Shown: positions 135 to 15,652, numbered from the stretch's first letter. The stretch is 16,108 nucleotides of DNA from a virus (IMGVR_UViG_3300045988_124840); one strand, 5' to 3'. Notes: generated by a model from the letters alone, not told the origin. A program made the numbers and translations.

Positions 135-1148
135 TTACTCTACTGTGGACACTGTGTGGACACTCTCGACCTCAGTACCACCTCTTAGCGGATTAAGAGA
201 AATGGCGTCCTGAAGGTACTCTGGCGCAAAATGAGCGTAAACCATAGTTTGCTCAATCCGCGTGTGACCTAGTATCCGTTGTAGCGTGATAATACTTCCT
301 CCATTAATCATGAAATGAGTGGCAAAGCTGTGCCTTAGTGCATGTGTAGCTTGCCCCATTGGCAAATCCGGTTTTATTGCTTTCATTGTTCGTCTGAAGC
401 GAGGGTAATCAGCATCAGGGAATAAAAAACCTCGTTTGTTATCCGCGATCATTTTGGCAACAGCCTCTGAGATCGGGACGGTGCGTGGTTTGTTTGTTTT
501 CGTTTTAACAAACGTGACGCGGTTATGGATGATATTTTCTGCTTTCAAACGAGCTGCTTCTCCCCAACGTGCTCCAGTACTCAGGCAAAGAATCGCAATC
601 TTTTTGTTGTCGCCGTCAAGAGCAGCAAGCAGTAAGGCAATTTCTTCCTGCGTGAGATAGCCTGTGTCTGGTTTTTCCTCCTTAAGCCTTTTTGTCCCTC
701 TGATAGGGTGCTCACCAAAGAATAACTCCGCTTCAATCAGGGCTGTAAACATGCCGCTAATACATGTTAAATCACGATTGATACTCGAAGGTTTAATACC
801 CTGACTTCTTCGGGTGGCGCAGTACTGGCTGATAAGCGATTTCGTAATTTGAAATGCGCATGGGTCATTCGTTATTTTTGTGAAGATTTCAATTTTCCCA
901 AGATTAGATTTCCCATGCTCTTCGTGTTTACCCTTTAAATCCCACCAGATCTGTGTCAGCTCCGACAGACGTCGCTTGTCTGTTGGTTTTGATAGCCATT
1001 CTTTATTGTGGTGGTTGTACAACGTGTATTTCTCGAAAGCGACAGCTTCGCTTTTCTTATCAAACTTCCTACGGATGCGTTTTCCATTACGTCCAGTAGG
1101 GCGGATGTCCACTTCATATCGACCATCATCGAGTTTTTTGATTGCCAT
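135..1148 (-). CDS. int: P2-type tyrosine integrase (337 aa)
   Basis: 337-aa ORF with ATG at 1148. The C-terminal region has the tyrosine-recombinase pattern (ATHALRHSFATHF ... LGHTRIEQTMVYAHF). Size and position next to the att core, divergent from C, match P2 Int. Confidence 0.93.
   Translation of the reverse strand: MAIKKLDDGRYEVDIRPTGRNGKRIRRKFDKKSEAVAFEKYTLYNHHNKEWLSKPTDKRRLSELTQIWWDLKGKHEEHGKSNLGKIEIFTKITNDPCAFQITKSLISQYCATRRSQGIKPSSINRDLTCISGMFTALIEAELFFGEHPIRGTKRLKEEKPDTGYLTQEEIALLLAALDGDNKKIAILCLSTGARWGEAARLKAENIIHNRVTFVKTKTNKPRTVPISEAVAKMIADNKRGFLFPDADYPRFRRTMKAIKPDLPMGQATHALRHSFATHFMINGGSIITLQRILGHTRIEQTMVYAHFAPEYLQDAISLNPLRGGTEVESVHTVSTVE
144..163. promoter_or_regulatory. Tandem TGTGGACAC repeats, putative Int arm-type binding sites inside the int 3' end
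   Basis: TGTGGACAC occurs at 144..152 and 155..163, an 11-bp period. A similar pair, TGTGGTCA / TGTGGACG, lies at the other prophage end (15995..16013). Confidence 0.5.
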
Positions 1149-1263: not shown

Positions 1264-1563
1264 TTAACCAGTCTTTTGACCGGAGTGGGGCGACGTTGTT
1301 TCGTTTTGCCCAAAGTGTGCGAGAGCGGGCGCAATTTGCCCGGACTCAGGAGCGATCTGATTGGTCATGAACCATAAAGTGTATTTGGTGAATTGTGGGG
1401 TCTGCAGGATGTTCATCATGACATCTGTTGGAGGTGTTGAACGACCACTTTCATAGTAACTCAGCGTGCCATACGGAACCCCTGTTAAATCAGCAAGTTG
1501 TTGTCTGCTCAAATACTCTGATTTTCGCATTAAGACTATCTTCTCGCTTATCGTGTTTGACAT
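1264..1563 (-). CDS. C: Immunity repressor C (99 aa, helix-turn-helix)
   Basis: 99-aa ORF with ATG at 1563, divergent from cox. N-terminal HTH-like segment LSRQQLADLTGVPYGTLSYYE. Size and position match P2 repressor C. Confidence 0.9.
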   Translation of the reverse strand: MSNTISEKIVLMRKSEYLSRQQLADLTGVPYGTLSYYESGRSTPPTDVMMNILQTPQFTKYTLWFMTNQIAPESGQIAPALAHFGQNETTSPHSGQKTG

Positions 1564-2134: not shown

Positions 2135-2631
2135 CAGTGATGACGCTCAATCTCGTTGAAAAACAGCCAGCAGCTATGCGCCGGATAATTGGCAAGCATC
2201 TTGCCGTCCCTCGCTGGCAGGATACATGTGATTATTATAATCAGATGATGGAGCGCGAACGGCTAACGGTTTGCTTTCATGCACAGTTAAAACAGCGTCA
2301 CGCAACGATGCGTTTTGAAGAAATGAACGACGTCGAACGTGAACGGCTGGTTTGTGCAATTGATGAATTGCGTGGGGCATTCTCAAAACGCCGTCAGGTC
2401 GGCGCAAGTGAGTATGCATATATTAGTTTTTTAACAGTCAGTCAGCGTCGCACTTTATTTATGCACGCACGACTGACAGAAAAAGAATTCAACCAGCCAT
2501 ACTGGCGAATTAATGAAGAATCATGTTACTGGCGTGATGCTTTATTCCGTGCATTACGTGAATTATTCAGCCTGTTTGAGTATGCACCGACAATTCTGAC
2601 GTCGGTAAAACCAGAGCAATATCTGCATTAA
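2131..2631 (+). CDS. B: Replication protein B (166 aa; helicase-loader-like early protein)
   Basis: ATG at 2131 overlapping the orf78 stop, with GGAGGG RBS upstream. The 166-aa length matches P2 B. The track start at 2125 adds two residues. Confidence 0.85.
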   Translation: MTVMTLNLVEKQPAAMRRIIGKHLAVPRWQDTCDYYNQMMERERLTVCFHAQLKQRHATMRFEEMNDVERERLVCAIDELRGAFSKRRQVGASEYAYISFLTVSQRRTLFMHARLTEKEFNQPYWRINEESCYWRDALFRALRELFSLFEYAPTILTSVKPEQYLH

Positions 2632-2694
2632 GTAATTAATCAGAGTTTTTAACGCACTTAATTGTGCGGGGCTTCTTTTTGCCTGGAGAACGTC

Positions 2695-2919
2695 ATGCAT
2701 ACAGTTTCCGAAAATCAGTGCGGTAAATACGCATTACTGCTGCAACAGGCCAGAACCGAAGCACAGGCCGACGCAGCGACGCGCTTTTCTTCTCATCTTG
2801 ACGCCATGATTCGCCACATCACAAAGGCGGAGTTATCCCGCGTGGAGATAGTCGAGCTGCTCAGTCAGGAGTCGGAAAAATTTCACAATATCGGATTGTC
2901 TCGCGGGGAGGTGCTTTGA
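2695..2919 (+). CDS. Small early protein (P2 orf80-like, 74 aa)
   Basis: ATG at 2695 preceded by GGAGA. The track start at 2662 is TTG. The stop overlaps the next start. Confidence 0.65.
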
Positions 2920-3221
2920 TGTCCTGTTCTCGTTCAGTTGTATTACTGAATAACGCCTTAAAAATCACCGTTATGAAAAATGGCGATTTATCTCTTATTC
3001 AACTTGGTCTTGATAAAGAAAAACGCGAAATAACTGAGTCTGTTATCGCGATTTATCAGAACGAATTAAATCTCCTGTCTGATGTGGTCAATTTACTTGT
3101 TAAACGCGCTGTATTTCACAAGCAAATCTCCTCCGTGGATGAACTGACGAAATTAACGACAGAAATTGCCAGCTATTGCGCTGATGAATTTAAAAAACTT
3201 AACGACAAAAGGAGCTGGTAA
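2919..3221 (+). CDS. Small early protein (P2 orf81-like, 100 aa)
   Basis: ATG at 2919 overlapping the upstream TGA, with GGGGAGG RBS. Translationally coupled chain of small ORFs. Confidence 0.65.
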   Translation: MSCSRSVVLLNNALKITVMKNGDLSLIQLGLDKEKREITESVIAIYQNELNLLSDVVNLLVKRAVFHKQISSVDELTKLTTEIASYCADEFKKLNDKRSW

Positions 3222-3445
3222 TGCCGGACAACGTAGATTTTATTCAGGAACAACAGGCTGAATTACTGGAGCGTCAGATTAACGCGGCAAGGGTAAAACA
3301 TTGCGGTGCTTCTGCGCTGGTTTGCGAAGAGTGTGACGCGCCAATACCTGCTGCCCGTCGTGCGGCTTACCCGTCAGCCACGCGTTGTGTTTCCTGTCAG
3401 TCAGTCTTTGAAGCAAAAAACAAACATTACCGGAGAACGGCATGA
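3221..3445 (+). CDS. DksA/TraR-type C4 zinc-finger protein (P2 orf82-like, 74 aa)
   Basis: Two CxxC pairs (CEEC ... CVSC) separated by about 17 residues, the TraR/DksA zinc-finger pattern. GGAG RBS, TAATG stop/start overlap with orf81. Confidence 0.75.
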   Translation: MPDNVDFIQEQQAELLERQINAARVKHCGASALVCEECDAPIPAARRAAYPSATRCVSCQSVFEAKNKHYRRTA

Positions 3446-3717
3446 GTATTCGTATTGAAATTGGCGAACGTTATGTCGTTACCAGTGACAGCTTTCAGTT
3501 TATTCTCCACGAGAAAAAGAGAGCGGAAAGCGGTAAAAACGCCGGTCAGGAATGGCTGGCGGTGGTTGGTTATTACCCGAAATTAAGCCAGCTCGTTTCC
3601 GGCCTGATGCATCACGATATTCTGACCGGAAGCGCAAAGTCTTTTGCTGATTTAAACGCGCAGGTTGAGCAACTCAGCAAGCGTTGTTCAGAGGCTTTTG
3701 GCTCATATGGCCGTTAA
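3442..3717 (+). CDS. Small early protein (P2 orf83-like, 91 aa)
   Basis: ATG at 3442 overlaps the orf82 stop (ATGA). Its 3' end overlaps the start of A. Confidence 0.65.
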   Translation: MSIRIEIGERYVVTSDSFQFILHEKKRAESGKNAGQEWLAVVGYYPKLSQLVSGLMHHDILTGSAKSFADLNAQVEQLSKRCSEAFGSYGR

Positions 3718-5983
3718 AGCCTCCGGGCGTTTTGTCCCTCCGTCAGCATTTGCCGCAGGCACCGGTAAGACGTTTACCGGTGCTTATGCATGGAACGCGC
3801 CACGCGAGGCTGTCGGGCGCGAAAGACCCCTTACACGTGACGAGATGCGTCAGGTGCAAGGTGTTTTATCCACGATTAATCGCCAGCCTTACTTTTTGCG
3901 CTCGCTGTTTACTTCACGCTATGACTACATCCGGCGCAATAAAAGCCCGGTGCACGGGTTTTATTTCCTCACATCCACTTTTCAGCGTCGTTTATGGCCG
4001 CGCATTGAGCGCGTTAATCAGCGCCATGAAATGAACACCGACGCGTCGTTGCTGTTTCTGGCAGAGCGTGACCACTATGCGCGCCTGCCTGGAATGAATG
4101 ACAAGGAGCTGAAAAAGTTTGCCGCCCGTATCTCATCGCAGCTTTTCATAATGTATGAGGAACTCTGCGATGCCTGGGTGGATGCGCATGGCGAGAAAGA
4201 ATCGCTGTTTACGGATGAGGCGCAGGCTCACCTGTATGGTCATGTTGCTGGCGCTGCACGTGCTTTCAATATTTCCCCGCTCTACTGGAAAAAATACCGT
4301 AAAGGACAGATGACCACGAGGCAGGCATATTCTGCCATTGCCCGCCTGTTTAACGATGAGTGGTGGACTCATCAGCTTAAAGGCCAGCGTATGCGCTGGC
4401 ATGAGGCGTTACTGATTGCTGTCGGGGAGGTCAATAAAGACCGTTCTCCTTATGCCAGTAAACATGCCATTCGTGATGTGCGTGCACGCCGCCAGGCAAA
4501 TCTGGAATTTCTTAAATCGTGTGACCTTGAAAACAGGGAAACCGGCGAGCGCATCGACCTTATCAGTAAGGTGATGGGCAGTATTTCTAATCCTGAAATT
4601 CGCCGGATGGAGCTGATGAACACCATTGCCGGTATTGAGCGTTACGCCGCAGCAGAGGGTGATGTGGGGATGTTTATCACGCTGACCGCGCCGTCAAAGT
4701 ATCACCCGACACGTCAGGTCGGAAAAGGCGAAAGTAAAACCGTCCAGCTAAATCACGGCTGGAACGATGAGGCATTTAATCCAAAGGATGCGCAGCGTTA
4801 TCTCTGCCATATCTGGAGCCTGATGCGCACGGCATTCAAGGATAATGATTTACAGGTCTACGGTTTGCGTGTCGTCGAGCCACACCACGACGGAACGCCG
4901 CACTGGCATATGATGCTTTTTTGTAATCCACGCCAGCGTAACCAGATTATTGAAATCATGCGTCGCTATGCGCTCAAAGAGGATGGCGACGAAAGAGGAG
5001 CCGCGCGAAACCGTTTTCAGGCAAAACACCTTAACCGGGGCGGTGCTGCGGGATATATCGCGAAATACATCTCAAAAAACATCGACGGCTATGCACTGGA
5101 TGGTCAGCTCGATAATGATACCGGTAGGCCGCTGAAAGACACAGCTGCGGCTGTTACCGCATGGGCGTCAACGTGGCGCATTCCGCAATTTAAAACGGTT
5201 GGTCTGCCGACAATGGGGGCTTACCGTGAACTACGCAAATTGCCTCGCGGCGTCAGCATTGCTGATGAGTTTGACGAGCGCGTCGAGGCTGCACGCGCCG
5301 CTGCAGACAGTGGTGATTTTGCGTTGTATATCAGCGCGCAGGGCGGGGCAAATGTCCCGCGCGATTGTCAGACTGTCAGGGTCGCCCGTAGCCCGTCGGA
5401 TGACGTTAACGAGTACGAGGAAGAAGTCGAGAGAGTGGTCGGCATTTACGCGCCGCATCTCGGCGCGCGTCATATTCATATCACCAGAACGACGGACTGG
5501 CGCATTGTTCCGAAAGTGCCGGTCGTTGAGCCTTTGACTTTAAAAAGCGGCATCGCCGCGCCTCGGAGTCCTGTCAATAACTGTGGAAAGCTCACCGGTG
5601 GTGATACTTCGTTACCGGCTCCCACACCTTCTGAGCACGCCGCAGCCGTGCTTAATCTGGTTGATGACGGTGTTATCGAATGGAATGACCCGGAGGTCGT
5701 GAGGGCGCTCAGGGGCGCATTAAAACACGGCCTGAGAACACCAAACCGTCAGCAAAGAAACGGAAGCCCGTTAAAACCGAATGAAATAGCGCCATCGGCC
5801 AGGCTGACCCGGTCGGAGCGTATGCAAATTACCCGTATCCGCGTTGACCTTGCTCAGAACGGTATCAGGCCGCAGCGATGGGAGCTTGAGGCGCTGGCGC
5901 GTGGCGCGACCGTAAATTATTACGGGAAATCTTTCAATTATCAGGTCGCTGATGAGTGGCCTGGATTTTTGTTACCCATTTGA
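3707..5983 (+). CDS. A: Rolling-circle replication initiator/endonuclease A (HUH superfamily)
   Basis: Long ORF with an HUH-type motif (PHWHMMLF) and paired tyrosines (GYIAKYISKN), typical of P2 gpA-type nicking proteins. Start placed at the first ATG (3707, MAVKAS...). The track's 3665 start is TTG; an in-frame TTG at 3698 is also possible. Confidence 0.9.
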   Translation: MAVKASGRFVPPSAFAAGTGKTFTGAYAWNAPREAVGRERPLTRDEMRQVQGVLSTINRQPYFLRSLFTSRYDYIRRNKSPVHGFYFLTSTFQRRLWPRIERVNQRHEMNTDASLLFLAERDHYARLPGMNDKELKKFAARISSQLFIMYEELCDAWVDAHGEKESLFTDEAQAHLYGHVAGAARAFNISPLYWKKYRKGQMTTRQAYSAIARLFNDEWWTHQLKGQRMRWHEALLIAVGEVNKDRSPYASKHAIRDVRARRQANLEFLKSCDLENRETGERIDLISKVMGSISNPEIRRMELMNTIAGIERYAAAEGDVGMFITLTAPSKYHPTRQVGKGESKTVQLNHGWNDEAFNPKDAQRYLCHIWSLMRTAFKDNDLQVYGLRVVEPHHDGTPHWHMMLFCNPRQRNQIIEIMRRYALKEDGDERGAARNRFQAKHLNRGGAAGYIAKYISKNIDGYALDGQLDNDTGRPLKDTAAAVTAWASTWRIPQFKTVGLPTMGAYRELRKLPRGVSIADEFDERVEAARAAADSGDFALYISAQGGANVPRDCQTVRVARSPSDDVNEYEEEVERVVGIYAPHLGARHIHITRTTDWRIVPKVPVVEPLTLKSGIAAPRSPVNNCGKLTGGDTSLPAPTPSEHAAAVLNLVDDGVIEWNDPEVVRALRGALKHGLRTPNRQQRNGSPLKPNEIAPSARLTRSERMQITRIRVDLAQNGIRPQRWELEALARGATVNYYGKSFNYQVADEWPGFLLPI

Positions 5984-6243
5984 GTAAAAATGCAGCGTGA
6001 TTTTATATGCCTTTGAATGGATTATGCGAAGCGCCTCTAAGGCAGATGAGGAGCAATAGCATGCTGAAGTAGAAGGCTAAATTGTATTGAATCGCTAGCA
6101 TGTAATTTAAAGCAGCTATTTGATTCGAGTCATAAAAGAGCATCTATTTCGGCTAATAAAACCATTGCGAGTGACCTTTTGTCGAAGCATAATTCATCTC
6201 GAGCGAAGTCTTGCTAGTCTTTCATCGGAATGATGACAGGCGC

Positions 6244-6273
6244 AAAAAAACCACCCTGGCAGGTGGTTTTTTT
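6244..6273. terminator. Bidirectional intrinsic terminator
   Basis: AAAAAAACCACC / CTGGCA loop / GGTGGTTTTTTT: a perfect hairpin flanked by an A-tract and a T-tract, so it can terminate in either direction. It lies downstream of A (+) and directly downstream of the minus-strand small ORF at 6286..6399. Confidence 0.8.
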
Positions 6274-6285
6274 GTTTGAAGCATA

Positions 6286-6399
6286 CTAAAGAATAATACT
6301 TACATGGATATTACTGACGTTTACTGACAAACCACTTGGACTACCATATGGATAGCCAAAGAGGGCCAGAACGAGAATGCAGTAATAGCACTTCTTCAT
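6286..6399 (-). CDS. Hypothetical small hydrophobic peptide (37 aa, MKKCYYCILVLALFGYPYGSPSGLSVNVSNIHVSIIL)
   Basis: Not in the ORF track (too short). ATG at 6399..6397 is preceded on the minus strand by a near-consensus RBS AGGAGG with a 4-nt spacer. Hydrophobic N-terminal stretch; TAG stop at 6288..6286 followed by the terminator. Hand-translated. Confidence 0.4.
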   Translation of the reverse strand: MKKCYYCILVLALFGYPYGSPSGLSVNVSNIHVSIIL

Positions 6400-6971
6400 A
6401 TCTCCTCCTGTAAGCAGAGGGCAATTTCCGCCGATATATGCGCTTCTAAGGCGGAGTTACTATTTAGCGAAGTCTTGCCCTGAAATAATGCTCTGTTTAA
6501 ACGCAAAGTGATCTGGCATATCACCGAACAGAGAGCCTGAACAACACAACATATAGTATGTCGTTGTTTCTGGTTGCATTTTATGTTGTGTAATCCTGGT
6601 TTTGCATCAAGGATGTTTGAGCTTTTTTTGATATAGCTCAAAGTAAAAAGCAGAGACTACGGATGATAAGGTATTGAAAGCAATGTAAATTTTTTAAAGT
6701 TATTGGCGGCTAAAAAATGCACGGTTTCAATATGGTGGACTTAAATAAGCAATTAAAAAAGTCATAAATATCACTAAAATCATGGTGTTACGTTTTTTTT
6801 GTGGGAGCTGCGGTGACGCTTAAGTTGATTTGTCATTAAATAAGCCGTGCATGCAACAAGTGAATGTTTTTGCATGCGTCGGGGATGCCCGTTCCGGCTG
6901 CTTGCGGTCAGAGCTGGTGCGGATCCATAGTATCTATGCAACTGCATTAAAACCGCCACATGAAGCGGGCG

Positions 6972-6990
6972 GGCGAGGCGGGGAAAGCAC
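6972..6990. other. cos site: 19-nt P2-type cohesive end GGCGAGGCGGGGAAAGCAC
   Basis: Exact match to the P2/P4 cohesive-end sequence as I remember it. It is flanked on the left by a GC-richer segment (about 6800..6971), consistent with the cosR packaging region. Confidence 0.8.
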
Positions 6991-7150
6991 TGCGCGCAAA
7001 ATGTTCTTGAAATATTTGTGACATAAGCTAAGACACAAAATGATTGAAGGGCAGAGCAAATCCTACAGTCCTATGCTATTGTCTCATGTAATGCAGATAA
7101 GTTGAAAATTATCTTAAAATATAAGAGTAAAGACATTAAAAGGATTGGTT

Positions 7151-9412
7151 ATGAATAATAACTCTAAGTTATTAAGCTCTATCTCGGTTGAATCTGATTT
7201 CGAGAACCTTATAAAACTATATGCAAATGAGTTATTTGGTGGTGAAACATATCTGATCGGTGGTCCTTGGGATAATGGAAAGGATTTGGTAATAAAAAAG
7301 GGGAATAGAGAGTTAAAGCAAGCTGTACAAATATCTATTCAAGAGAAAAATATTGAAAGTAAGATTGCTCAAGATATTAAAAAAGTGGCGAAATTGGTTG
7401 ATGATCATTATTACCCGCCTGTATTATATTTTTTTTGGAGTCATTCAATATCTGAGCATTTATTGGATAAGATAAGAACAAATGCTCTTAAGGAAGATTT
7501 GATTAGATTGGAGTTTTATGATGCCAAACGGATCTCTCAAGATATTACAGATAAATACCCAGGGTTATTGAATTACTTAATAAAAGATATACATAAGATA
7601 AGTTCTAATACTGAAGATGCAATTAACTTGCAACAAAGAGCATTTTATGAATATTTATTGTTAAGCAAAGATAGTGCTAATTTAAAAAATGAAATAATAA
7701 AAGCTAGTATTATGTCTAATTTATATGATGGCGGGAAGTCTGCTGATGATATTCTAGAGAATCTAAAAGGTGTTAGTCTTACAAAACGTAGTTTACAGGG
7801 TAGACTGCAAAACCTAATTCATCAAAATAAAATTAGATTGAATGATGGTATATATAGCCTGTCACCAGAGGAAATTAAAAAGCTTGAGAATATAAATCTC
7901 CGTGAAATTGTCAGAAAAGAAGAGTTGTTATCAGTAATAAATAATGAGTTGCCCAGAAATACAAGTAAGAATCTGGCTGTTCAAGTTGTTGATTTAATAA
8001 TAAAGGCTTATGAAGAATCAATAAATGTCCAATTAACAGAAAGTAAATTTGAGCCTCCAAAATTACAGATATTCAAAACTATAGTACATAATTTAAAGGT
8101 GTTGATACGGCAGGAATATGATTTGGATGATGAGTCTTCGGATGCTTTAGCAAAAAAGCTAATGGAGTTGGCTGGTCAAAATGACTATTTATCCGAGCAT
8201 TGCTCTGCTAAATTATGTGTGAATCTTTTAAGTGATCGGAAATTAGAGAAATATATTGAAAATAAAAATTTTTATATCTACTTTGATGCGCCTGTTCTTA
8301 TTCCATATTTGATAACTCTTATGTTTGGAGATTTTGAGCTTTTTGATAAGTCGATTAAAAATATAAATTTACTGAGAGAGTGCATAAATCCCCTCAAAAA
8401 TAAACATCTGAGAGTTTCTAATGAACATTTTGAAGAAACTGCAAGGCACTACTCTGAAGCTGAAAAATTAAGTCAGTTTGTAACTGAAGATTTAATTAGT
8501 CAACTTGGTGAGTCGAAAAATGTATACTTTAATGTTTATATGCGGTGGAAAAACAAACAGCCTAAACGTACAGATTTTTACGATTTTACTTATGCTTTTC
8601 TAGGGTTGGATAAAGATGATATTTATGCGGGGTATAAGCATGACACATTTGCGCAATGCATTCATAATTTACTAGCGTCAGCAAATATTGTTGTAATTGA
8701 TAATAAAGACTCGGTGTCACAAGACTTTGTATTTAAAATAAAGCAAAAACTTAAAAGGGATTTGAATTCTTCACGTCCCGTTCGAGCCATAGAAAATGAT
8801 GTTATATGTGCTGCAACTTTGAGTGATGAAACCCTACATCTTGATTCCAATGGTTACTTCAGTACTCCCATGCTAATAACACTTGATAGATCTCAATATC
8901 TATTGAGAAGCATAGTAAGAAATGAAAGGAGACATGCTGAATGGTTGGTTTATACCCCTCAAAGAGCAATTGAACGTCTTTCCTTGGTGGGTTTAAAAAT
9001 ATCATCGGAATCGTTAAAGGATGGTGTTTTAGCAACCATATCAGAAGAATATTTCTTTAAAGAAAGTTCCAGTAGTTTGATTGATACTTTGGCTATTATC
9101 ATTGGAGATAATCAAGCAAGGCAAGGAGATGTTATTAGGCTTGCATCGCTTTTAAAAAGAAAGGTCAATGAGGAATCTATTGAGAATTCAGAAATTGATA
9201 TTGAACACTATAATAACATTAGTTATGTGCTTCTTTTCATTCATCGTGAATTTAAATCTGAATTTTCAAATATAATAAAAATTTTTGCTGAGGATAGTAG
9301 GCGAGATAAACTGGTTGAAGTTTTGTTATCCACTATTCAAGGAGTTTTTGATGAGAGTAAAAAGGAAATCTTGCGCTCAAATATAGGACGGTTGTTGGCT
9401 GAAATGGGATGA
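7151..9412 (+). CDS. Hypothetical AT-rich cargo protein (753 aa); possible N-terminal Mrr-like PD-(D/E)xK nuclease fold, rest unknown; candidate anti-phage defence protein
   Basis: Single long ORF with codon usage unlike the P2 backbone (AT-rich, Lys/Asn/Ile-rich). ATG at 7151 preceded by AAAGGA with a 6-nt spacer; the track start at 7145 is TTG. N-terminal segment FENLIKLYANELFGGETYLIGGPWDNGKDLVI ... QAVQISIQEK resembles the D-x-G-x-D ... Q-x-K core of Mrr-type restriction-endonuclease domains. No Walker A motif seen. Function is inferred from context only. Confidence 0.75.
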   Translation: MNNNSKLLSSISVESDFENLIKLYANELFGGETYLIGGPWDNGKDLVIKKGNRELKQAVQISIQEKNIESKIAQDIKKVAKLVDDHYYPPVLYFFWSHSISEHLLDKIRTNALKEDLIRLEFYDAKRISQDITDKYPGLLNYLIKDIHKISSNTEDAINLQQRAFYEYLLLSKDSANLKNEIIKASIMSNLYDGGKSADDILENLKGVSLTKRSLQGRLQNLIHQNKIRLNDGIYSLSPEEIKKLENINLREIVRKEELLSVINNELPRNTSKNLAVQVVDLIIKAYEESINVQLTESKFEPPKLQIFKTIVHNLKVLIRQEYDLDDESSDALAKKLMELAGQNDYLSEHCSAKLCVNLLSDRKLEKYIENKNFYIYFDAPVLIPYLITLMFGDFELFDKSIKNINLLRECINPLKNKHLRVSNEHFEETARHYSEAEKLSQFVTEDLISQLGESKNVYFNVYMRWKNKQPKRTDFYDFTYAFLGLDKDDIYAGYKHDTFAQCIHNLLASANIVVIDNKDSVSQDFVFKIKQKLKRDLNSSRPVRAIENDVICAATLSDETLHLDSNGYFSTPMLITLDRSQYLLRSIVRNERRHAEWLVYTPQRAIERLSLVGLKISSESLKDGVLATISEEYFFKESSSSLIDTLAIIIGDNQARQGDVIRLASLLKRKVNEESIENSEIDIEHYNNISYVLLFIHREFKSEFSNIIKIFAEDSRRDKLVEVLLSTIQGVFDESKKEILRSNIGRLLAEMG

Positions 9413-9503: not shown

Positions 9504-10538
9504 TTAGGTATCGCAAGTATCTAGTGAGTAGTTTTTAAAGCGGATGACCTCCTGACCGAGCCAGCCGTTTATCTCGCGGATCCTGTCCTGTAACGGGATA
9601 AGCTCATTGCGGACAAAGACCTTTGCCACTTTCTCAATATCGCCCAGTGACCCGACGTTCTCCGGCTTGCCGCCCATCAACTGAAAGGGGATGCGGTGCG
9701 CGTCCAGTAGGTCAGCGGCGCTGGCTTTTTTGATATTAAAAAAATCGTCCTTCGTTGCGACTTCACTGAGCGGGATAATTTTAATGCCGTCGGCTTTCCC
9801 CTGTGGGGCATAGAGAAACAGATTTTTAAAGTTGTTGCGGCCTTTCGACTTCACCATGTTTTCGCGGAGCATTTCGATATCGTTGCGATCCTGCACGGCA
9901 TCAGTGACGTACATGATGTATCCGGCATGTGCGCCGTTTTCGTAATACTTGCGGCGGAACAGCGTGGCCGACTCATTCAGCCAGGCAGAGTTAAGGGCGC
10001 TGAGATATTCCGGCAGGCCGTACAACTCCTGATTAATATCCGGCTCCAGCAGGTGAAACACGGAGCCGGGCGCGAAGGCTGTCGGTTCGTTGAAGGACGG
10101 CACCCACCAGTAAACATCCTCTTCCACCCCACGGCGGGTATATTTTGCCGGTGAGGTTTCCAGTCTGATGACCTTACCGGTGGTGCTGTAACGCTTTTCC
10201 AGAAACGCATTACCGAACACCAGAAAATCCAGCACAAAGCGGCTGAAATCCTGTTGTGAAAGCCACGGATGCGGGATAAATGTCGAGGCCAGAATATTAC
10301 GTTTGACGTAAATCGGTGAGCTGTGATGTACGGCAGCACGCAGGCTTTTTGCCAGACCGGTAAAGCTGACCGGTGGCTCATACCATCTGCCGTTACTGAT
10401 GCACTCGACGTAATCCAGAATGTCACGGCGGTCGAGTACCGGCACCGGCTCACCAAAGGTGAATGCCTCCATTTTCGGGGCGCTGGCGGTCATTGTTTTT
10501 GCCGCAGGTTGCGGTGTTTTCCCTTTTTTCTTGCTCAT
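9504..10538 (-). CDS. Q: Portal protein Q (344 aa)
   Basis: 344-aa ORF with ATG at 10538, lying near cos on the minus strand as in P2. Its start overlaps the stop of the upstream P-derived frame by 1 nt (TGATG). Length matches P2 gpQ. Confidence 0.9.
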   Translation of the reverse strand: MSKKKGKTPQPAAKTMTASAPKMEAFTFGEPVPVLDRRDILDYVECISNGRWYEPPVSFTGLAKSLRAAVHHSSPIYVKRNILASTFIPHPWLSQQDFSRFVLDFLVFGNAFLEKRYSTTGKVIRLETSPAKYTRRGVEEDVYWWVPSFNEPTAFAPGSVFHLLEPDINQELYGLPEYLSALNSAWLNESATLFRRKYYENGAHAGYIMYVTDAVQDRNDIEMLRENMVKSKGRNNFKNLFLYAPQGKADGIKIIPLSEVATKDDFFNIKKASAADLLDAHRIPFQLMGGKPENVGSLGDIEKVAKVFVRNELIPLQDRIREINGWLGQEVIRFKNYSLDTCDT

Positions 10539-10745
10539 CAGTAAAACTCCAGAATGGTGGATGTCAGCGGGGTGCTGATACCGGCGGTGAGTGGCTCATT
10601 TAACAGGGCGTGCATGGTCGCCCAGGCGAGGTCGGCGTGGCTGGCTTCCTCGCTGCGGCTGGCCTCATAGGTGGCGCTGCGTCCGCTGCTGGTCATGGTC
10701 TTGCGGATAGCCATAAACGAGCTGGTGATGTCGGTGGCGCTGACG
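10538..10745 (-). pseudogene. P: Truncated terminase large-subunit gene P (C-terminal ~68 codons only)
   Basis: Minus-strand frame ending ...LTAGISTPLTSTILEFY with its stop overlapping the Q start, the P2 P–Q arrangement. Upstream of about 10745 the same frame runs antisense to FII-like coding sequence, so only the 3' end of P is left. The upper boundary is approximate. Confidence 0.5.
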
Positions 10746-10750
10746 TCGTA

Positions 10751-11071
10751 TTCCCGGATTCGGTTATCTGGGAGCTTTACGCCGCAACCGGTGTGGATGC
10801 CGTCCCGATTCGTTTTGCTGGCTCTTACCAGCGCGACGATACCGGCGAAACGGTGGCCGTCGAGGTGGTCATGCGTGGCCGTCAGAAAGAAATCGACACC
10901 GGCGAGGGTAAACAGGGAGAAGACACCGAGTCGAAAATCTCCGTGGTCTGCACCTATTTCCGGCTGACGATGGACGGTAAGGAGCTGGTCGAAATCGACA
11001 CCATTAACATGATTGAGAAGGTGAACGGCGTCGACCGGCTGGAGCAACACCGCCGCAATATCGGCCTGTGA
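10751..11071 (+). pseudogene. FII: 5'-truncated tail tube gene FII (C-terminal ~105 codons)
   Basis: The C-terminal part of the + ORF (FPDSVIWELYAATGVDAVPIRFAGSYQRDD ... VNGVDRLEQHRRNIGL) is protein-like, matches the P2 FII C-terminus as I remember it, and sits in the expected place just upstream of E. The first ~47 residues of the track ORF look like non-coding read-through. No start codon or RBS for a full-length FII. The 5' boundary is approximate. Confidence 0.6.
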
Positions 11072-11403: not shown

Positions 11404-11555
11404 CGTTTCCGAAAAATCTGTCGGTCGATGACCTGATGGCGGATGTGGCTGTGATATTTCACTGGCCGCCATCAGAACTGTACCCCATGAGCCTGACCGA
11501 ACTCATCACATGGCGCGAAAAGGCGCTCCGGCGAAGCGGAAACACGAATGAGTAA
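11128..11555 (+). CDS. E+E': E+E' tail chaperone fusion made by programmed -1 ribosomal frameshift
   Basis: Slippery heptamer-like run GGTTTTTTG at 11374..11382 (six T's at 11376..11381). The -1 frame stays open from there to TAA at 11553..11555, overlapping the T start by 8 nt. This parallels the conserved G/GT-type chaperone frameshift upstream of tape-measure genes. Confidence 0.75.
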
Positions 11556-13995
11556 CAATGTAAAATTACAGGTATTGCTCAGGGCTGTTGACCAGGCATC
11601 CCGCCCGTTTAAATCCATCCGCACAGCGAGTAAGTCGCTGTCGGGGGATATCCGGGAAACACAAAAATCACTGCGCGAGCTGAACGGTCACGCATCCCGT
11701 ATTGAGGGATTCCGCAAGACCAGTGCACAGCTCGCCGTGACTGGTCATGCACTTGAAAAGGCACGGCAGGAGGCCGAAGCCCTTGCCACACAGTTTAAAA
11801 ATACCGAACGACCGACCCGTGCTCAGGCGAAAGTGCTGGAATCCGCAAAGCGAGCGGCGGAGGACTTACAGGCGAAATATAACCGCCTGACGGATTCCGT
11901 TAAACGCCAGCAGCGGGAACTGGCCGCTGTGGGAATTAATACCCGCAATCTTGCACATGATGAGCAGGGGCTGAAAAACCGTATCAGTGAAACCACCGCA
12001 CAGCTTAACCGTCAGCGCGACGCACTGGCGCGTGTCAGTGCACAACAGGCAAAACTTAACGCAGTAAAACAGCGTTATCAGGCCGGAAAGGAACTGGCCG
12101 GAAATATGGCCTCAGTGGGCGCTGCCGGTGTGGGGATTGCTGCTGCGGGAACGATGGCCGGTGTTAAGCTGCTGATGCCCGGTTATGAGTTTGCGCAGAA
12201 AAACTCAGAATTGCAGGCTGTGCTCGGTGTGGCAAAAGACTCCGCCGAAATGGCCGCATTACGCAAACAGGCGCGCCAGCTCGGCGACAATACCGCCGCC
12301 TCGGCAGATGATGCAGCCGGTGCGCAGATTATTATTGCGAAAGCCGGTGGGGATGTTGATGCCATTCAGGCGGCAACGCCGGTCACGCTGAACATGGCGC
12401 TGGCGAACCGCCGCACGATGGAAGAAAACGCCGCCCTGCTGGTGGGGATGAAATCCGCCTTTCAGCTTTCAAACGATAAGGTCGCTCATATCGGGGATGT
12501 TCTCTCCATGACGATGAACAAAACCGCCGCCGATTTTGACGGCATGAGCGATGCGCTGACCTATGCCGCACCTGTGGCAAAAAATGCCGGTGTCAGCATT
12601 GAAGAAACCGCCGCAATGGTCGGGGCGCTGCATGATGCAAAAATCACAGGCTCAATGGCGGGGACGGGAAGCCGTGCCGTGTTAAGCCGCCTGCAGGCAC
12701 CGACGGGAAAAGCGTGGGATGCACTGAAAGAGCTTGGTGTGAAAACCTCAGACAGCAAGGGAAACACCCGACCAGTATTTACCATTCTGAAAGAAATGCA
12801 GGCCAGTTTTGAGAAAAACCGGCTCGGTACTGCCCAGCAGGCCGAATACATGAAAACCATTTTCGGGGAGGAGGCCAGCTCAGCCGCCGCTGTGCTGATG
12901 ACTGCCGCGTCAACCGGAAAGCTGGACAAACTGACCGCTGCGTTTAAAGCCTCAGACGGGAAGACCGCCGAGCTGGTAAATATCATGCAGGACAACCTCG
13001 GCGGTGACTTTAAGGAGTTTCAGTCCGCTTATGAGGCGGTGGGGACTGACCTGTTTGACCAGCAGGAAGGCGCGCTGCGTAAGCTCACGCAGACGGCCAC
13101 AAAGTATGTGTTAAAACTTGACGGCTGGATACAGAAAAACAAATCACTGGCGTCAACCATCGGCCTCATTGCCGGTGGCGCACTGGCGCTTACTGGCATC
13201 ATCGGTGCCATTGGCCTTGTAGCCTGGCCGGTTATCACTGGCATCAATGCCATTATCGCGGCAGCAGGCGCAATGGGGGCAATCTTCACGACGGTTAGCA
13301 GTGCTGTTATGACGGCCATCGGGGCGATTAGCTGGCCGGTTGTGGCCGTGGTGGCCGCCATTGTCGCCGGGGCGTTGCTTATCCGTAAATACTGGGAGCC
13401 TGTCAGCGCATTCTTTGGCGGTGTGGTTGAAGGGCTGAAAGCGGCATTTGCGCCGGTGGGGGAACTGTTCACGCCACTGAAGCCGGTGTTTGACTGGCTG
13501 GGTGAAAAGTTACAGGCCGCGTGGCAGTGGTTTAAAAACCTGATTGCCCCGGTCAAAGCCACCCAGGACACCCTGAACCGTTGCCGTGACACGGGCGTCA
13601 TGTTCGGGCAGGCACTGGCTGACGCGCTGATGCTGCCGCTTAATGCGTTCAACAAACTGCGCAGTGGCATTGACTGGGTACTGGAAAAACTCGGTGTTAT
13701 CAACAAAGAGTCAGACACACTTGACCAGACCGCCGCCAGAACTCAAGCCGCCACGTATGGCAGCGGTGGTTATATTCCGGCGACCAGCTCTTATGCAGGC
13801 TATCAGGCTTATCAGCCGGTCACGGCACCGGCTGGCCGCTCTTATGTAGACCAGAGTAAAAACGAATATCACATCAACCTGACGGGTGGTACTGTGCCGG
13901 GGACACAGCTTGACCGCCAGTTACAGGATGCGCTTGAAAAATACGAGCGGGATAAACGTGCGCGCGCCCGTGCCAGCATGATGCATGACGGTTAA
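11548..13995 (+). CDS. T: Tail tape measure protein T (815 aa)
   Basis: 815-aa ORF with a coiled-coil-like N-terminal half and a long Gly/Ala/Ile-rich hydrophobic block (LASTIGLIAGGALALTGIIGAIGLVAWPVITGINAIIAAAGAMGAIF...), typical of tape-measure proteins. Size matches P2 gpT. Confidence 0.92.
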   Translation: MSNNVKLQVLLRAVDQASRPFKSIRTASKSLSGDIRETQKSLRELNGHASRIEGFRKTSAQLAVTGHALEKARQEAEALATQFKNTERPTRAQAKVLESAKRAAEDLQAKYNRLTDSVKRQQRELAAVGINTRNLAHDEQGLKNRISETTAQLNRQRDALARVSAQQAKLNAVKQRYQAGKELAGNMASVGAAGVGIAAAGTMAGVKLLMPGYEFAQKNSELQAVLGVAKDSAEMAALRKQARQLGDNTAASADDAAGAQIIIAKAGGDVDAIQAATPVTLNMALANRRTMEENAALLVGMKSAFQLSNDKVAHIGDVLSMTMNKTAADFDGMSDALTYAAPVAKNAGVSIEETAAMVGALHDAKITGSMAGTGSRAVLSRLQAPTGKAWDALKELGVKTSDSKGNTRPVFTILKEMQASFEKNRLGTAQQAEYMKTIFGEEASSAAAVLMTAASTGKLDKLTAAFKASDGKTAELVNIMQDNLGGDFKEFQSAYEAVGTDLFDQQEGALRKLTQTATKYVLKLDGWIQKNKSLASTIGLIAGGALALTGIIGAIGLVAWPVITGINAIIAAAGAMGAIFTTVSSAVMTAIGAISWPVVAVVAAIVAGALLIRKYWEPVSAFFGGVVEGLKAAFAPVGELFTPLKPVFDWLGEKLQAAWQWFKNLIAPVKATQDTLNRCRDTGVMFGQALADALMLPLNAFNKLRSGIDWVLEKLGVINKESDTLDQTAARTQAATYGSGGYIPATSSYAGYQAYQPVTAPAGRSYVDQSKNEYHINLTGGTVPGTQLDRQLQDALEKYERDKRARARASMMHDG

Positions 13996-14009
13996 GGAGG
14001 TGACGAAAA

Positions 14010-14489
14010 ATGATGCTCGCGTTAGGTATGTTTGTTTTTATGCGCCAGACGCTGCCACACCAGACCATGCAGCGTGAATCAGATTATCGCTGGCCGTCAA
14101 ATTCCCGTATCGGTAAACGGGATGCCTTTCAGTTTCTCGGCGTTGGCGAGGAAAACATCACGCTTGCCGGTGTGCTTTATCCCGAGCTGACCGGCGGAAA
14201 GCTGACGATGACCACGCTCAGGCTGATGGCAGAGGAAGGTCGGGCGTGGCCGTTGCTGGATGGCACCGGCATGATTTACGGCATGTATGTCATCAGCAGG
14301 GTGAGTGAAACAGGGAGTATTTTCTTTGCAGACGGCACACCCCGAAAAATTGATTTTACGCTGTCGCTCACCCGCGTTGATGAATCACTGGCCGCGCTTT
14401 ATGGCGATATCGGTAAACAGGCGGAATCGCTCATCGGTAAGGCTGGCAGTATGGCGACTAAATTCACGGGTATGACGGGGGCGGGATAA
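14010..14489 (+). CDS. U: Tail protein U (159 aa)
   Basis: 159-aa ORF with AAGGAGG RBS at 13994..14000. Position between T and D and size match P2 gpU. Confidence 0.88.
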   Translation: MMLALGMFVFMRQTLPHQTMQRESDYRWPSNSRIGKRDAFQFLGVGEENITLAGVLYPELTGGKLTMTTLRLMAEEGRAWPLLDGTGMIYGMYVISRVSETGSIFFADGTPRKIDFTLSLTRVDESLAALYGDIGKQAESLIGKAGSMATKFTGMTGAG

Positions 14490-15652
14490 TGCTGGATGCG
14501 CTGACATTTGATGCAGGCAGTACGCTGACACCGGATTACATGCTGATGCTCGACAGCAGGGATATTACCGGCAATATCAGCGACCGTCTGATGAGCATGA
14601 CCCTGACGGATAACCGGGGCTTTGAGGCTGACCAGCTTGATATTGAACTGAACGATGCCGACGGGCAGGTCGGGCTGCCGGTTCGTGGCGCTGTCCTGAC
14701 GGTGTATATCGGCTGGAAAGGTTTTGCCCTGGTATGCAAAGGGAAATTTACCGTTGATGAGGTTGAACACCGGGGCGCGCCGGATGTGGTTACCATCCGC
14801 GCCCGGAGTGCAGATTTTCGCGGGACGCTCAATTCCCGCCGGGAAGGCTCATGGCATGACACCACGCTCGGTGCGATTGTTGAGGCGATAGCCTCCCGTA
14901 ACAGGCTGGAAGCCAGTGTCGCGCCGTCACTGGCCGGAATTAAAATCCCGCACATCGACCAGTCGCAGGAGTCTGATGCAAAATTCCTGACCCGCCTTGC
15001 TGAACGCAACGGCGGTGAGGTGTCGGTAAAAATGGGAAAATTGTTGTTTCTCAAAGCGGGGCAGGGGGTGACGGCCAGTGGTAAAAAAATCCCGCAGATT
15101 ACCATCACCCGCAGCGACGGCGACCGTCATCATTTTGCGATTGCTGACCGTGGAGCCTACACCGGCGTAACGGCAAAGTGGTTACACACCAAAGACCCGA
15201 AGCCGCAAAAGCAGAAGGTAAAACTGAAACGCAAAAAGAAAGAGAAACACCTGCGCGCACTGGAGCACCCGAAAGCGAAACCGGTCAGGCAGAAGAAAGC
15301 GCCAAAAGTACCGGAAGCGCGCGAAGGTGAATACATGGCCGGTGAGGCTGACAACGTTTTTGCCCTGACCACGGTATATGCCACGAAAGCACAGGCCATG
15401 CGTGCTGCTCAGGCGAAGTGGGATAAACTGCAACGGGGCGTTGCGGAGTTCTCCATCATCCTGGCTACCGGTCGTGCAGATATTTACACGGAAACACCGG
15501 TCAGAGTGTCAGGCTTTAAGCGCGTCATAGACGAGCAGGACTGGACAATCACTAAGGTGACACATTTTCTGAATAATAGCGGCTTCACGACGTCCTTGGA
15601 GCTTGAGGTCAGGCTTTCTGATGTGGAGTACGAAACAGAAGATGATGAGTGA
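14489..15652 (+). CDS. D: Tail protein D (387 aa; late-gene-control D)
   Basis: 387-aa ORF whose start overlaps the U stop (ATGA-type junction). Size and position match P2 gpD. Contains a Lys-rich low-complexity linker (KPQKQKVKLKRKKKEKH...). Confidence 0.88.
   Translation: MLDALTFDAGSTLTPDYMLMLDSRDITGNISDRLMSMTLTDNRGFEADQLDIELNDADGQVGLPVRGAVLTVYIGWKGFALVCKGKFTVDEVEHRGAPDVVTIRARSADFRGTLNSRREGSWHDTTLGAIVEAIASRNRLEASVAPSLAGIKIPHIDQSQESDAKFLTRLAERNGGEVSVKMGKLLFLKAGQGVTASGKKIPQITITRSDGDRHHFAIADRGAYTGVTAKWLHTKDPKPQKQKVKLKRKKKEKHLRALEHPKAKPVRQKKAPKVPEAREGEYMAGEADNVFALTTVYATKAQAMRAAQAKWDKLQRGVAEFSIILATGRADIYTETPVRVSGFKRVIDEQDWTITKVTHFLNNSGFTTSLELEVRLSDVEYETEDDE

Follow-up and report, generated by a model that had tools for sequence, protein, structure and literature searches.

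Introduction

What occupies the position of the orf91, tin and old genes in a P2-like prophage in which this position contains no long open reading frame (ORF)? The question is raised by a viral sequence of 16,108 nucleotides (nt), IMGVR_UViG_3300045988_124840, which consists of a P2-like prophage and which we refer to as the window, i.e. the entire stretch of DNA analyzed. An initial annotation described the interval 5984-6800, located between gene A and the cohesive end site cos, as AT-rich and mostly non-coding DNA with a small-peptide module, a strong bidirectional terminator and short repeats, and considered that it might be a decayed or exchanged accessory locus or might encode non-protein functions. 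Here, we suggest that positions 6152-6718 are probably, if by no means certainly, a mobile unit of the type I toxin-antitoxin kind that is lodged in the tin/old position of P2.

The observation of an AT-rich interval without a long ORF is confirmed. The G+C content is 37.9% in 5984-6800, whereas gene A has 53.6% and the window as a whole 48%, and the longest ORF between gene A and position 6800 has 81 amino acids (aa) and a TTG start (6396-6641, minus strand), all others having at most 46 aa. The interpretation of the interval in terms of decay or regulatory RNA is partly supported. The suggestion of non-protein functions was essentially correct, in that a predicted small-RNA gene, a structured 5' untranslated region (5'UTR) of 171 nt and an nrdDG-type promoter account for nearly all of the apparently non-coding DNA of 6152-6718, whereas decay is at odds with the conservation described below.

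A conserved gene for a 37-aa peptide

The minus strand of the module carries an ORF of 37 aa (MKKCYYCILVLALFGYPYGSPSGLSVNVSNIHVSIIL; 6286-6399) that encodes a putative membrane toxin and is preceded by the Shine-Dalgarno sequence AGGAGG (6409 to 6404). The reading frame is intact in 76 of the 76 copies collected, which comprise 41 distinct sequences and 15 peptide variants. Pairwise ratios of non-synonymous to synonymous substitution rates (dN/dS) are 0.09-0.36, and the variable sites are distributed over codon positions 1, 2 and 3 as 19, 13 and 29, so that most are at the third position. Judged by these substitution patterns, the ORF is a real gene under purifying selection.

The peptide starts with a basic N-terminus and a hydrophobic stretch of ~12 residues; a GYP motif is invariant, and the C-terminal half is polar, with alternating residues. 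The residues M1, C7, L11, L13, G15, Y16, P17, S22, G23 and S25 are invariant. Homologues of 37-39 aa are encoded on ~400 plasmids, and one phage record annotates the peptide, as a hypothetical protein. Comparison of the peptide with Pfam, NCBIfam and PADLOC gave nothing at E <= 1 and comparison with PHROGs gave one match (E 0.41), while a phmmer search of 1.8 billion representative proteins returned eight relatives, none of which was informative.

A predicted small RNA and a shared terminator

On the plus strand, the module has in order a promoter, seven variable bases, a conserved 15-nt sequence (GAGCGAAGTCTTGCC), a covarying hairpin and a terminator. The promoter, predicted by a consensus scan, is of the sigma-70 type (6165-6193; TTGCGA, a 17-nt spacer and CATAAT), and in copies that are ~73% identical and located in plasmids, a telomere phage and the neighbourhood of an inovirus its -35 TTGCG and its -10 GCATAATT are kept 17-18 nt apart. 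The predicted transcript is a small RNA of ~75 nt (6201-6275), the putative antitoxin, in which a 5' seed (6201-6215) is followed by the hairpin (6217-6241) and by the terminator (6242-6275). In the window, the RNA 6201-6276 has a minimum free energy of -31.9 kcal/mol (z -5.1). The sequence of the hairpin varies among lineages while its pairing is kept: four of the six pairs are changed on both sides, and 97.8% of the hairpin cells are paired compared to 49-73% with slid partners. We suggest from these features that the plus-strand unit would yield a ~75-nt small RNA, and would probably do so constitutively.

The strong bidirectional terminator reported in the initial annotation was recovered as a perfect 13-nt inverted repeat (CAAAAAAACCACC / GGTGGTTTTTTTG) at 6243-6274. 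With A7 adjoining one end of the repeat and T7 the other, it can act in both directions, i.e. it would serve both the small RNA and the mRNA of the 37-aa ORF. Several of the scans by which copies were collected used the terminator, the seed or its target as the search pattern, and only copies from megablast, peptide tblastn and blastn are independent of these patterns; all copies, also those from the peptide or blastn searches, have the terminator in nearly invariant form. The built-in terminator scan missed this terminator, probably because the T-run is absorbed in a stem extended by A/T pairs.

No Rfam family covers either of the two predicted RNAs, and the module was previously unannotated. 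The covariance-model search proposed in the initial annotation gave, for 5700-7300 at E <= 10 and for other copies, no family for the module but only terminator look-alikes below threshold, i.e. RNAI (26 bits with a cut-off of 47) and Phe_leader. Literature searches, by topic and with the sequence of the seed, returned no account of the module.

Predicted pairing between the putative small RNA and the leader

The mRNA of the 37-aa ORF is predicted to begin with a structured non-coding 5'UTR of ~171 nt (6400-6570, minus strand) whose consensus fold has six helices. In one of these, a GCCCY motif pairs with the GGAGG of the Shine-Dalgarno sequence, and another places part of the target described below in a loop. 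Of the leader cells, 98.3% are paired compared to 36-60% with slid partners, and five pairs are changed on both sides compared to 1.2 in shuffles. Among upstream reading frames in the leader, none is conserved.

The short repeats of the interval include an exact 13-mer, AGCGAAGTCTTGC, at 6202-6214 and 6466-6478, which correspond to the seed of the predicted small RNA and to a target site in the leader (6465-6479, minus strand; GGCAAGACTTCGCTA). Thus, ~70 nt upstream of the start codon of the ORF, the leader contains GGCAAGACTTCGCTC, to which the 5' end of the small RNA is complementary, and this target is the only match of the seed at up to two mismatches. The predicted duplex has a length of 13-17 nt and an energy of -25.6 to -33.6 kcal/mol and forms at the same site in nine alleles, compared to -14 to -19 kcal/mol for shuffled RNAs. 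The two RNAs are also complementary over the terminator hairpin because they share the terminator.

Seed and target sequences differ between two subfamilies, A (GAGCGAAGUCUUGCC) and B (GAGCAAAGCCUUACC). In subfamily A, every difference in seed or target leaves a G-U pair. Subfamily B consists of the copies L086, on a Salmonella IncF plasmid, and L087, on a Leclercia IncFII plasmid; both were found by blastn and by peptide, without a seed-based search, and their two peptides share 57% identity. With the seed GAGCAAAGCCTTACC and the target GGTAAGGCTTTGCTC, three changes on both sides restore perfect pairing in subfamily B. The peptide of this subfamily has 39 aa (MDRRDCMCLFILTLISHLITGQESWMVYLNHISLTVQFY in L086) and its leader is partly different; the terminator and the nrdDG-type promoter are kept.

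A promoter of the nrdDG type

A 65-nt piece of the module (6601-6665) matched the nrdD-treC intergenic region of Salmonella, and local alignment with E. coli K-12 extends the homology to the nrdD upstream region to 6600-6718 (minus strand). Within this homology, a stretch of 61 nt has a single mismatch to the K-12 nrdD upstream region and likewise a single one to the published 54-mer of the promoter of nrdDG (the genes of the class III ribonucleotide reductase), to which it corresponds and whose two FNR sites have their centres at -64.5 and -33.5 (PMC10425943). The corresponding promoter core of the module (6578-6641, minus strand) consists of a -10 TAAAAT (6583 to 6578), FNR site 1 (6597-6610) and FNR site 2 (6628-6641). 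The distances between the FNR sites and the -10 are the same as in nrdDG and, therefore, a transcription start at ~6570 and an mRNA of ~330 nt are predicted. FNR half-sites are not informative by their number alone (21 in the window with 10.7 expected), and the case for the promoter rests on the homology to nrdDG. The promoter is kept in all lineages including subfamily B.

Downstream of the predicted start, a palindrome resembling an NrdR box (ATACTATATGTTGTGT; 6544-6559, minus strand) would cover +12 to +27 of the mRNA. Within <=3 mismatches of ACACWATATATWGTGT, the 16-kb window contains only this sequence, which has two mismatches (0.14 matches expected). The NrdR-like box aligns with the area of NrdR box 2 of nrdDG (PMC2892513), although the NrdR-like boxes are located ~9 nt further downstream than in nrdDG and the similarity to nrdD ends ~25 nt past the predicted start. 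Thus, the 61-nt stretch, the FNR sites, the -10 and a downstream NrdR-like box are common to the two promoters; unlike that of nrdDG, the promoter of the module would drive a 37-aa ORF on mobile DNA.

In the stretch of FNR site 2, the alleles of E. coli prophages have the K-12 wording (TTGAGCTAYATCAAAAAAAGCTCAAACATCC) whereas plasmid alleles have the wording of Salmonella nrdD (TTGTTC...ATCAATAAAA). Over the whole block, the difference is modest: the window allele is 62% identical to K-12 and 56% to Salmonella, compared to 58-61% and 63-67%, respectively, for plasmid alleles. This pattern hints at exchange with the nrdD copy of the host.

Spread of the module

The module is self-contained and has a size of ~0.5 kb at 6152-6718, with a core at 6152-6665, whose borders were set by copies that are ~74% identical, and promoter homology out to 6718. 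In the comparison with P2, homology ends at ~5966, inside the end of gene A, and restarts at ~6942, and the segment therefore occupies the position of orf91, tin and old. Neither blastn nor tblastx found a match of 5967-6942 to P2 coordinates 27000-33593, i.e. these searches detected no homology to orf91, tin or old. The position between gene A and cos is common to both loci, but in P2 it holds 3.3 kb with three protein genes and in the window 1 kb with one 37-aa gene.

Of 5426 complete E. coli genomes, 150 contain the segment nearly full length and with 84-100% identity, and its site is unannotated. The ends of P2-like gene A are found at ~1933 places in 1682 of these genomes, and the module follows gene A at 153 of them; therefore, ~8% of the P2-like copies carry the segment. 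Comparison with other P2-like prophages thus does not identify it as conserved P2 backbone: it is absent from P2 (NC_001895) and from the remaining ~92% of P2-like gene A copies. An exchanged accessory locus, one of the suggestions made initially, is correct in the sense that the segment replaces orf91, tin and old, and in that sense only. The segment is found in only three of 50,697 phage records.

The conservation of the segment is independent of the adjacent cargo. In some prophages, the segment is separated from cos by a cargo that consists of ImmA and two unknown genes; other prophages, among them that of the window, have their cargo between cos and Q; and one cargo-free prophage has the order gene A, segment, cos, Q. 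This conservation, the purifying selection on the 37-aa ORF and the presence of the core in unrelated mobile elements argue against the suggestion that the interval is a decayed accessory locus.

Copies that are ~74% identical are present in an N15-like telomere phage, where the module lies between a repA-like gene and the protelomerase gene, in Kluyvera next to genes for inovirus Zot and secretin, and also in Citrobacter. Plasmid copies are more numerous: tblastn with the peptide identified 394-406 records and blastn with the core 421, of which 388 are nearly full length. The carriers are mostly large, conjugative Klebsiella plasmids of the IncF type, and none is annotated at the site of the module. 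A scan of genome contigs with one genome per species gave two true cases among five matches.

Three observations were made beside these copies. The metagenome contig L071 contains two copies of the module 2.9 kb apart (3368-3650 and 6290-6571) with different peptide variants. Other type I toxin-antitoxin elements are found 1-2 kb from plasmid copies of the module, i.e. an Rfam AgrB match on a Klebsiella plasmid (L049, 2069-2156; 45.1 bits, exceeding the gathering score) and an annotated gene for a DinQ-like toxin, dqlB, on a Salmonella plasmid (L086, 5038-5133). Finally, several complete E. coli chromosomes (e.g. NZ_CP107128.1 and NZ_CP074033.1) have the module at 2278-3111, directly after a stretch of 2277 bp that has the size of gene A, which suggests that these assemblies start at a P2-like gene A and were probably rotated by software onto a replication-initiator-like gene.

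Proposed mechanism and alternative explanations

By analogy with timP/timR, tisB/istR-1 and related systems, we propose that the peptide mRNA would be made mainly in the absence of oxygen, through FNR, from the copy of the nrdDG promoter, and possibly also when repression by NrdR is lifted. In this mRNA, which would stop at the shared terminator, the Shine-Dalgarno sequence would be paired within the 171-nt leader. The small RNA from its own promoter would pair with the leader ~70 nt upstream of the start codon and would either block ribosome standby or loading or trigger cleavage. Peptide that escapes this repression would insert into the inner membrane and be harmful, and the unit would serve its carrier, be it prophage or plasmid, as a conditional addiction or stress module.

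Several points weigh against a type I toxin-antitoxin unit. (i) Expression, repression, toxicity and FNR dependence are all predictions from sequence. (ii) For a membrane helix the hydrophobic stretch is short; it rather resembles a signal peptide and, therefore, the peptide may be exported and harmless. (iii) A tight control of the toxin promoter by FNR/NrdR-type sites is unlike what classical post-segregational killing needs. (iv) The invariance of seed, target and terminator is partly circular in copies that were collected with these patterns, and the structures were predicted from the same alignments that were used for the pair counts, which favours them. (v) The covariation in subfamily B stems from a single lineage and does not reach significance in the shuffle control (38 of 500). 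Moreover, seed and target are a direct repeat at the level of DNA, and their joint change could be due to gene conversion or to a protein with a binding site in each of them.

The second of these points leads to a reading in which the peptide is a small exported or membrane protein of the 'moron' type that, in the absence of oxygen, alters the physiology or surface of the host (lysogenic or plasmid conversion) and the level of which is tuned by the small RNA. A basic start, a hydrophobic run of ~12 residues and the helix-breaking GYP make up a signal-like N-terminus, the promoter is of a regulated, metabolic type rather than constitutive, and none of the 76 copies is inactivated as chromosomal toxins often are. 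However, a signal-like N-terminus that is not cleaved is also present in TimP, a proven toxin (PMC7667032), the combination of a peptide of <40 aa with a long leader, in which the Shine-Dalgarno sequence is sequestered, and with a complementary small RNA encoded next to it is the hallmark of type I systems, and the module is found almost only on elements that gain from addiction, i.e. conjugative plasmids, a plasmid-prophage and prophages. We therefore regard a moron as possible but doubtful. The direct repeat raises the case in which there is no small RNA and the two AGCGAAGTCTTGC copies are sites for a DNA-binding regulator, the plus-strand promoter and terminator serving to end gene A transcripts. 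The repeats lie on one DNA strand, the identical changes in subfamily B suit a protein site and in the P2-like prophage the terminator lies downstream of gene A; but the promoter hexamers, their spacing and the hairpin that conserves its pairing are kept in plasmids and phages without an upstream gene A, and the differences between copies are transitions that keep a G-U pair in RNA, which would be meaningless for a protein site. This explanation appears improbable to us.

In the two remaining explanations the segment is not a mobile gene module. The location between gene A and cos and the retention with and without cargo would suit a piece of P2 backbone with a role in cis, e.g. in termination of gene A, in replication or in helping packaging near cos, and yet the segment is missing from P2 and from most P2-like gene A copies, it is rare among phage records, its core is present in plasmids and unrelated phages and the conserved backbone before cos begins only at ~6820-6942. 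As far as sequence comparison reaches, a backbone role is refuted, and we consider it very improbable. Hardly credible, and least probable of all, is that the segment is functionless debris of a former cargo: the low G+C content, the absence of any long ORF and the disruption of the 46-aa ORF of the left spacer would be expected, but not the purifying selection on the 37-aa ORF or the maintenance of promoters, structures, seed and target across elements that have diverged by ~27%. For the left spacer itself (5984-6151, 168 bp), debris may be the correct description.

Comparison with known systems

A type I toxin-antitoxin unit thus remains the reading that we favor. In general terms, a type I system has a gene for a hydrophobic peptide of <60 aa and an adjacent gene for a complementary small RNA. 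The module has the former in a gene of 37-39 aa, intact in 76 of 76 copies, whose product has a hydrophobic N-terminal half, and appears to have the latter in the predicted unit of promoter, covarying hairpin and terminator with its duplex of -25.6 to -33.6 kcal/mol. The closest parallel is timP/timR (ryfA) of E. coli and Salmonella, which likewise has a peptide of ~38-41 aa with a signal-like, hydrophobic N-terminus, an mRNA of ~300 nt in which the leader is long and structured and the Shine-Dalgarno sequence sequestered, and a neighbouring small RNA that is transcribed separately, ends at a terminator of its own and pairs with the leader by its 5' part (PMC7667032, PMC13000454). Sequestration of the Shine-Dalgarno sequence is known for type I toxin mRNAs (PMC13000454). 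In contrast to the genes of the module, which converge on one terminator, timR is divergent and located upstream; and timPR belongs to the chromosomal core whereas the module is found on mobile elements and has an nrdDG-type promoter.

Homology to TimP was considered and rejected, with an hhalign probability of 8.8%, 11 aligned N-terminal residues and no nucleotide similarity. RyfA (RF00126) was not detected at E <= 10 on either strand of 5700-7300, at E <= 1 in the copy L049 or at the gathering score in five other loci. By its predicted architecture, the module is most like timPR in how it works and yet is not a member of that family.

In tisB/istR-1, dinQ/agrB and zorO/orzO, pairing with the small RNA takes place at a distance upstream of the start codon and not over it, and the toxin promoters of tisB and dinQ respond to a host stress regulator. 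These promoters are under the control of LexA and the trans-type pairs are divergent, whereas the module has FNR/NrdR-type sites and convergent genes, and the peptides and RNAs are dissimilar. Convergent genes with overlapping 3' ends are characteristic of bsrG/SR4 and txpA/RatA, elements of Bacillus subtilis prophages. These systems pair by the 3' overlap only; in the module, the main predicted contact is between the 5' seed and the leader, the 3' overlap being limited to the terminator hairpin. Moreover, they are from a different host phylum and have no homology to the module.

A further step, rather unlikely but worth stating, would be that the module represents an undescribed type I family on mobile elements of Enterobacteriaceae whose toxin gene has captured the host nrdDG promoter and in which killing or dormancy is thereby wired to FNR/NrdR, i.e. 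to the absence of oxygen and the state of the deoxynucleotide pool. Located in the P2 hotspot, such a module could sense the nucleotide disturbance caused by an infecting phage and trigger abortive infection. A mobile toxin gene with a copy of a well-studied host promoter is an unusual case of regulatory capture and offers a direct means to study the conditions that switch on a type I toxin. Similarly, the differing seed/target pairs of the two subfamilies constitute a natural experiment on specificity. On ~400 sequenced plasmids, the module may affect persistence in the oxygen-poor gut. Surveys of P2/P4 hotspots are protein-based, and a locus of this kind counts in them as empty or as spacer; stretches that seem empty can, however, hold complete gene modules under RNA control.

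Genomic setting of the interval

The P2-like prophage of the window begins with an integrase gene (135-1148, minus strand). The following ORF of 99 aa (1264-1563, minus strand), whose relatives are helix-turn-helix proteins, has what we take to be the position of the P2 C repressor gene and is adjoined by an ORF in the cox position. Gene A (3665-5983; Pfam Phage_GPA, E 5.6e-124) borders the interval on the left. On the right, it is bounded by cos (6972-6990, plus strand), an exact match to the 19-mer of the P2 cohesive end (GGCGAGGCGGGGAAAGCAC) at which linear phage records end, and the portal gene Q follows at 9504-10538 (minus strand).

The initial annotation treated the locus as a tin/old hotspot without a long ORF. 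This holds for 5984-6800, but the published hotspot is the entire gpA-gpQ interval (PMC9122126) and is not empty, with a long cargo gene just past cos. This gene is an orphan ORF of 755 aa between cos and Q (7145-9412, plus strand; 31.6% G+C) that has no match to a Pfam, NCBIfam, PADLOC or PHROG family and that RefSeq names a hypothetical protein (WP_053286240.1). The ORF, which lies inside the gpA-gpQ defence hotspot, is a candidate for an unknown defence gene.

The prophage itself is a deletion remnant in which the terminase gene P is reduced to its C-terminal 170 aa (Terminase_6C; 10538-11050, minus strand). The truncated gene P is followed by the tape-measure gene, gpU and gpD (11548-15652, plus strand), and genes for capsid, lysis, baseplate, fibre and sheath are lacking.

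Left spacer and rejected ORFs

The spacer of 168 bp between the stop codon of gene A and the module (5984-6151) is non-coding, is the most variable part of the segment and is common to P2-borne alleles only; it has no blastn or tblastx match in P2. A search for tRNA and tmRNA genes found none. Four small ORFs were considered and rejected: the 46-aa ORF from 6143 to 6003 has stop codons in most alleles, the 39-aa ORF from 6579 to 6460 and the 81-aa ORF from 6641 to 6396 are broken by stop codons or frameshifts in relatives, and the plus-strand ORF of 37 aa at 6120-6233 is open in relatives, yet its changes are mostly non-synonymous. An inverted repeat at 5993-6005 and 6775-6787 (85% complementary) does not coincide with the borders of the module in diverged copies and was taken as a chance occurrence.

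The second of the short repeats reported for the interval, a 16-nt direct repeat (GCGCYTCTAAGGCRGA) at 6031-6046 and 6440-6455, connects the left spacer with a hairpin of the leader. It is not kept in those P2-borne alleles that have diverged most, and its origin may be the duplication from which the small-RNA gene arose. Upstream of the module, within the final codons of gene A, the plus strand contains a terminator-like hairpin with a T-run (5941-5964).

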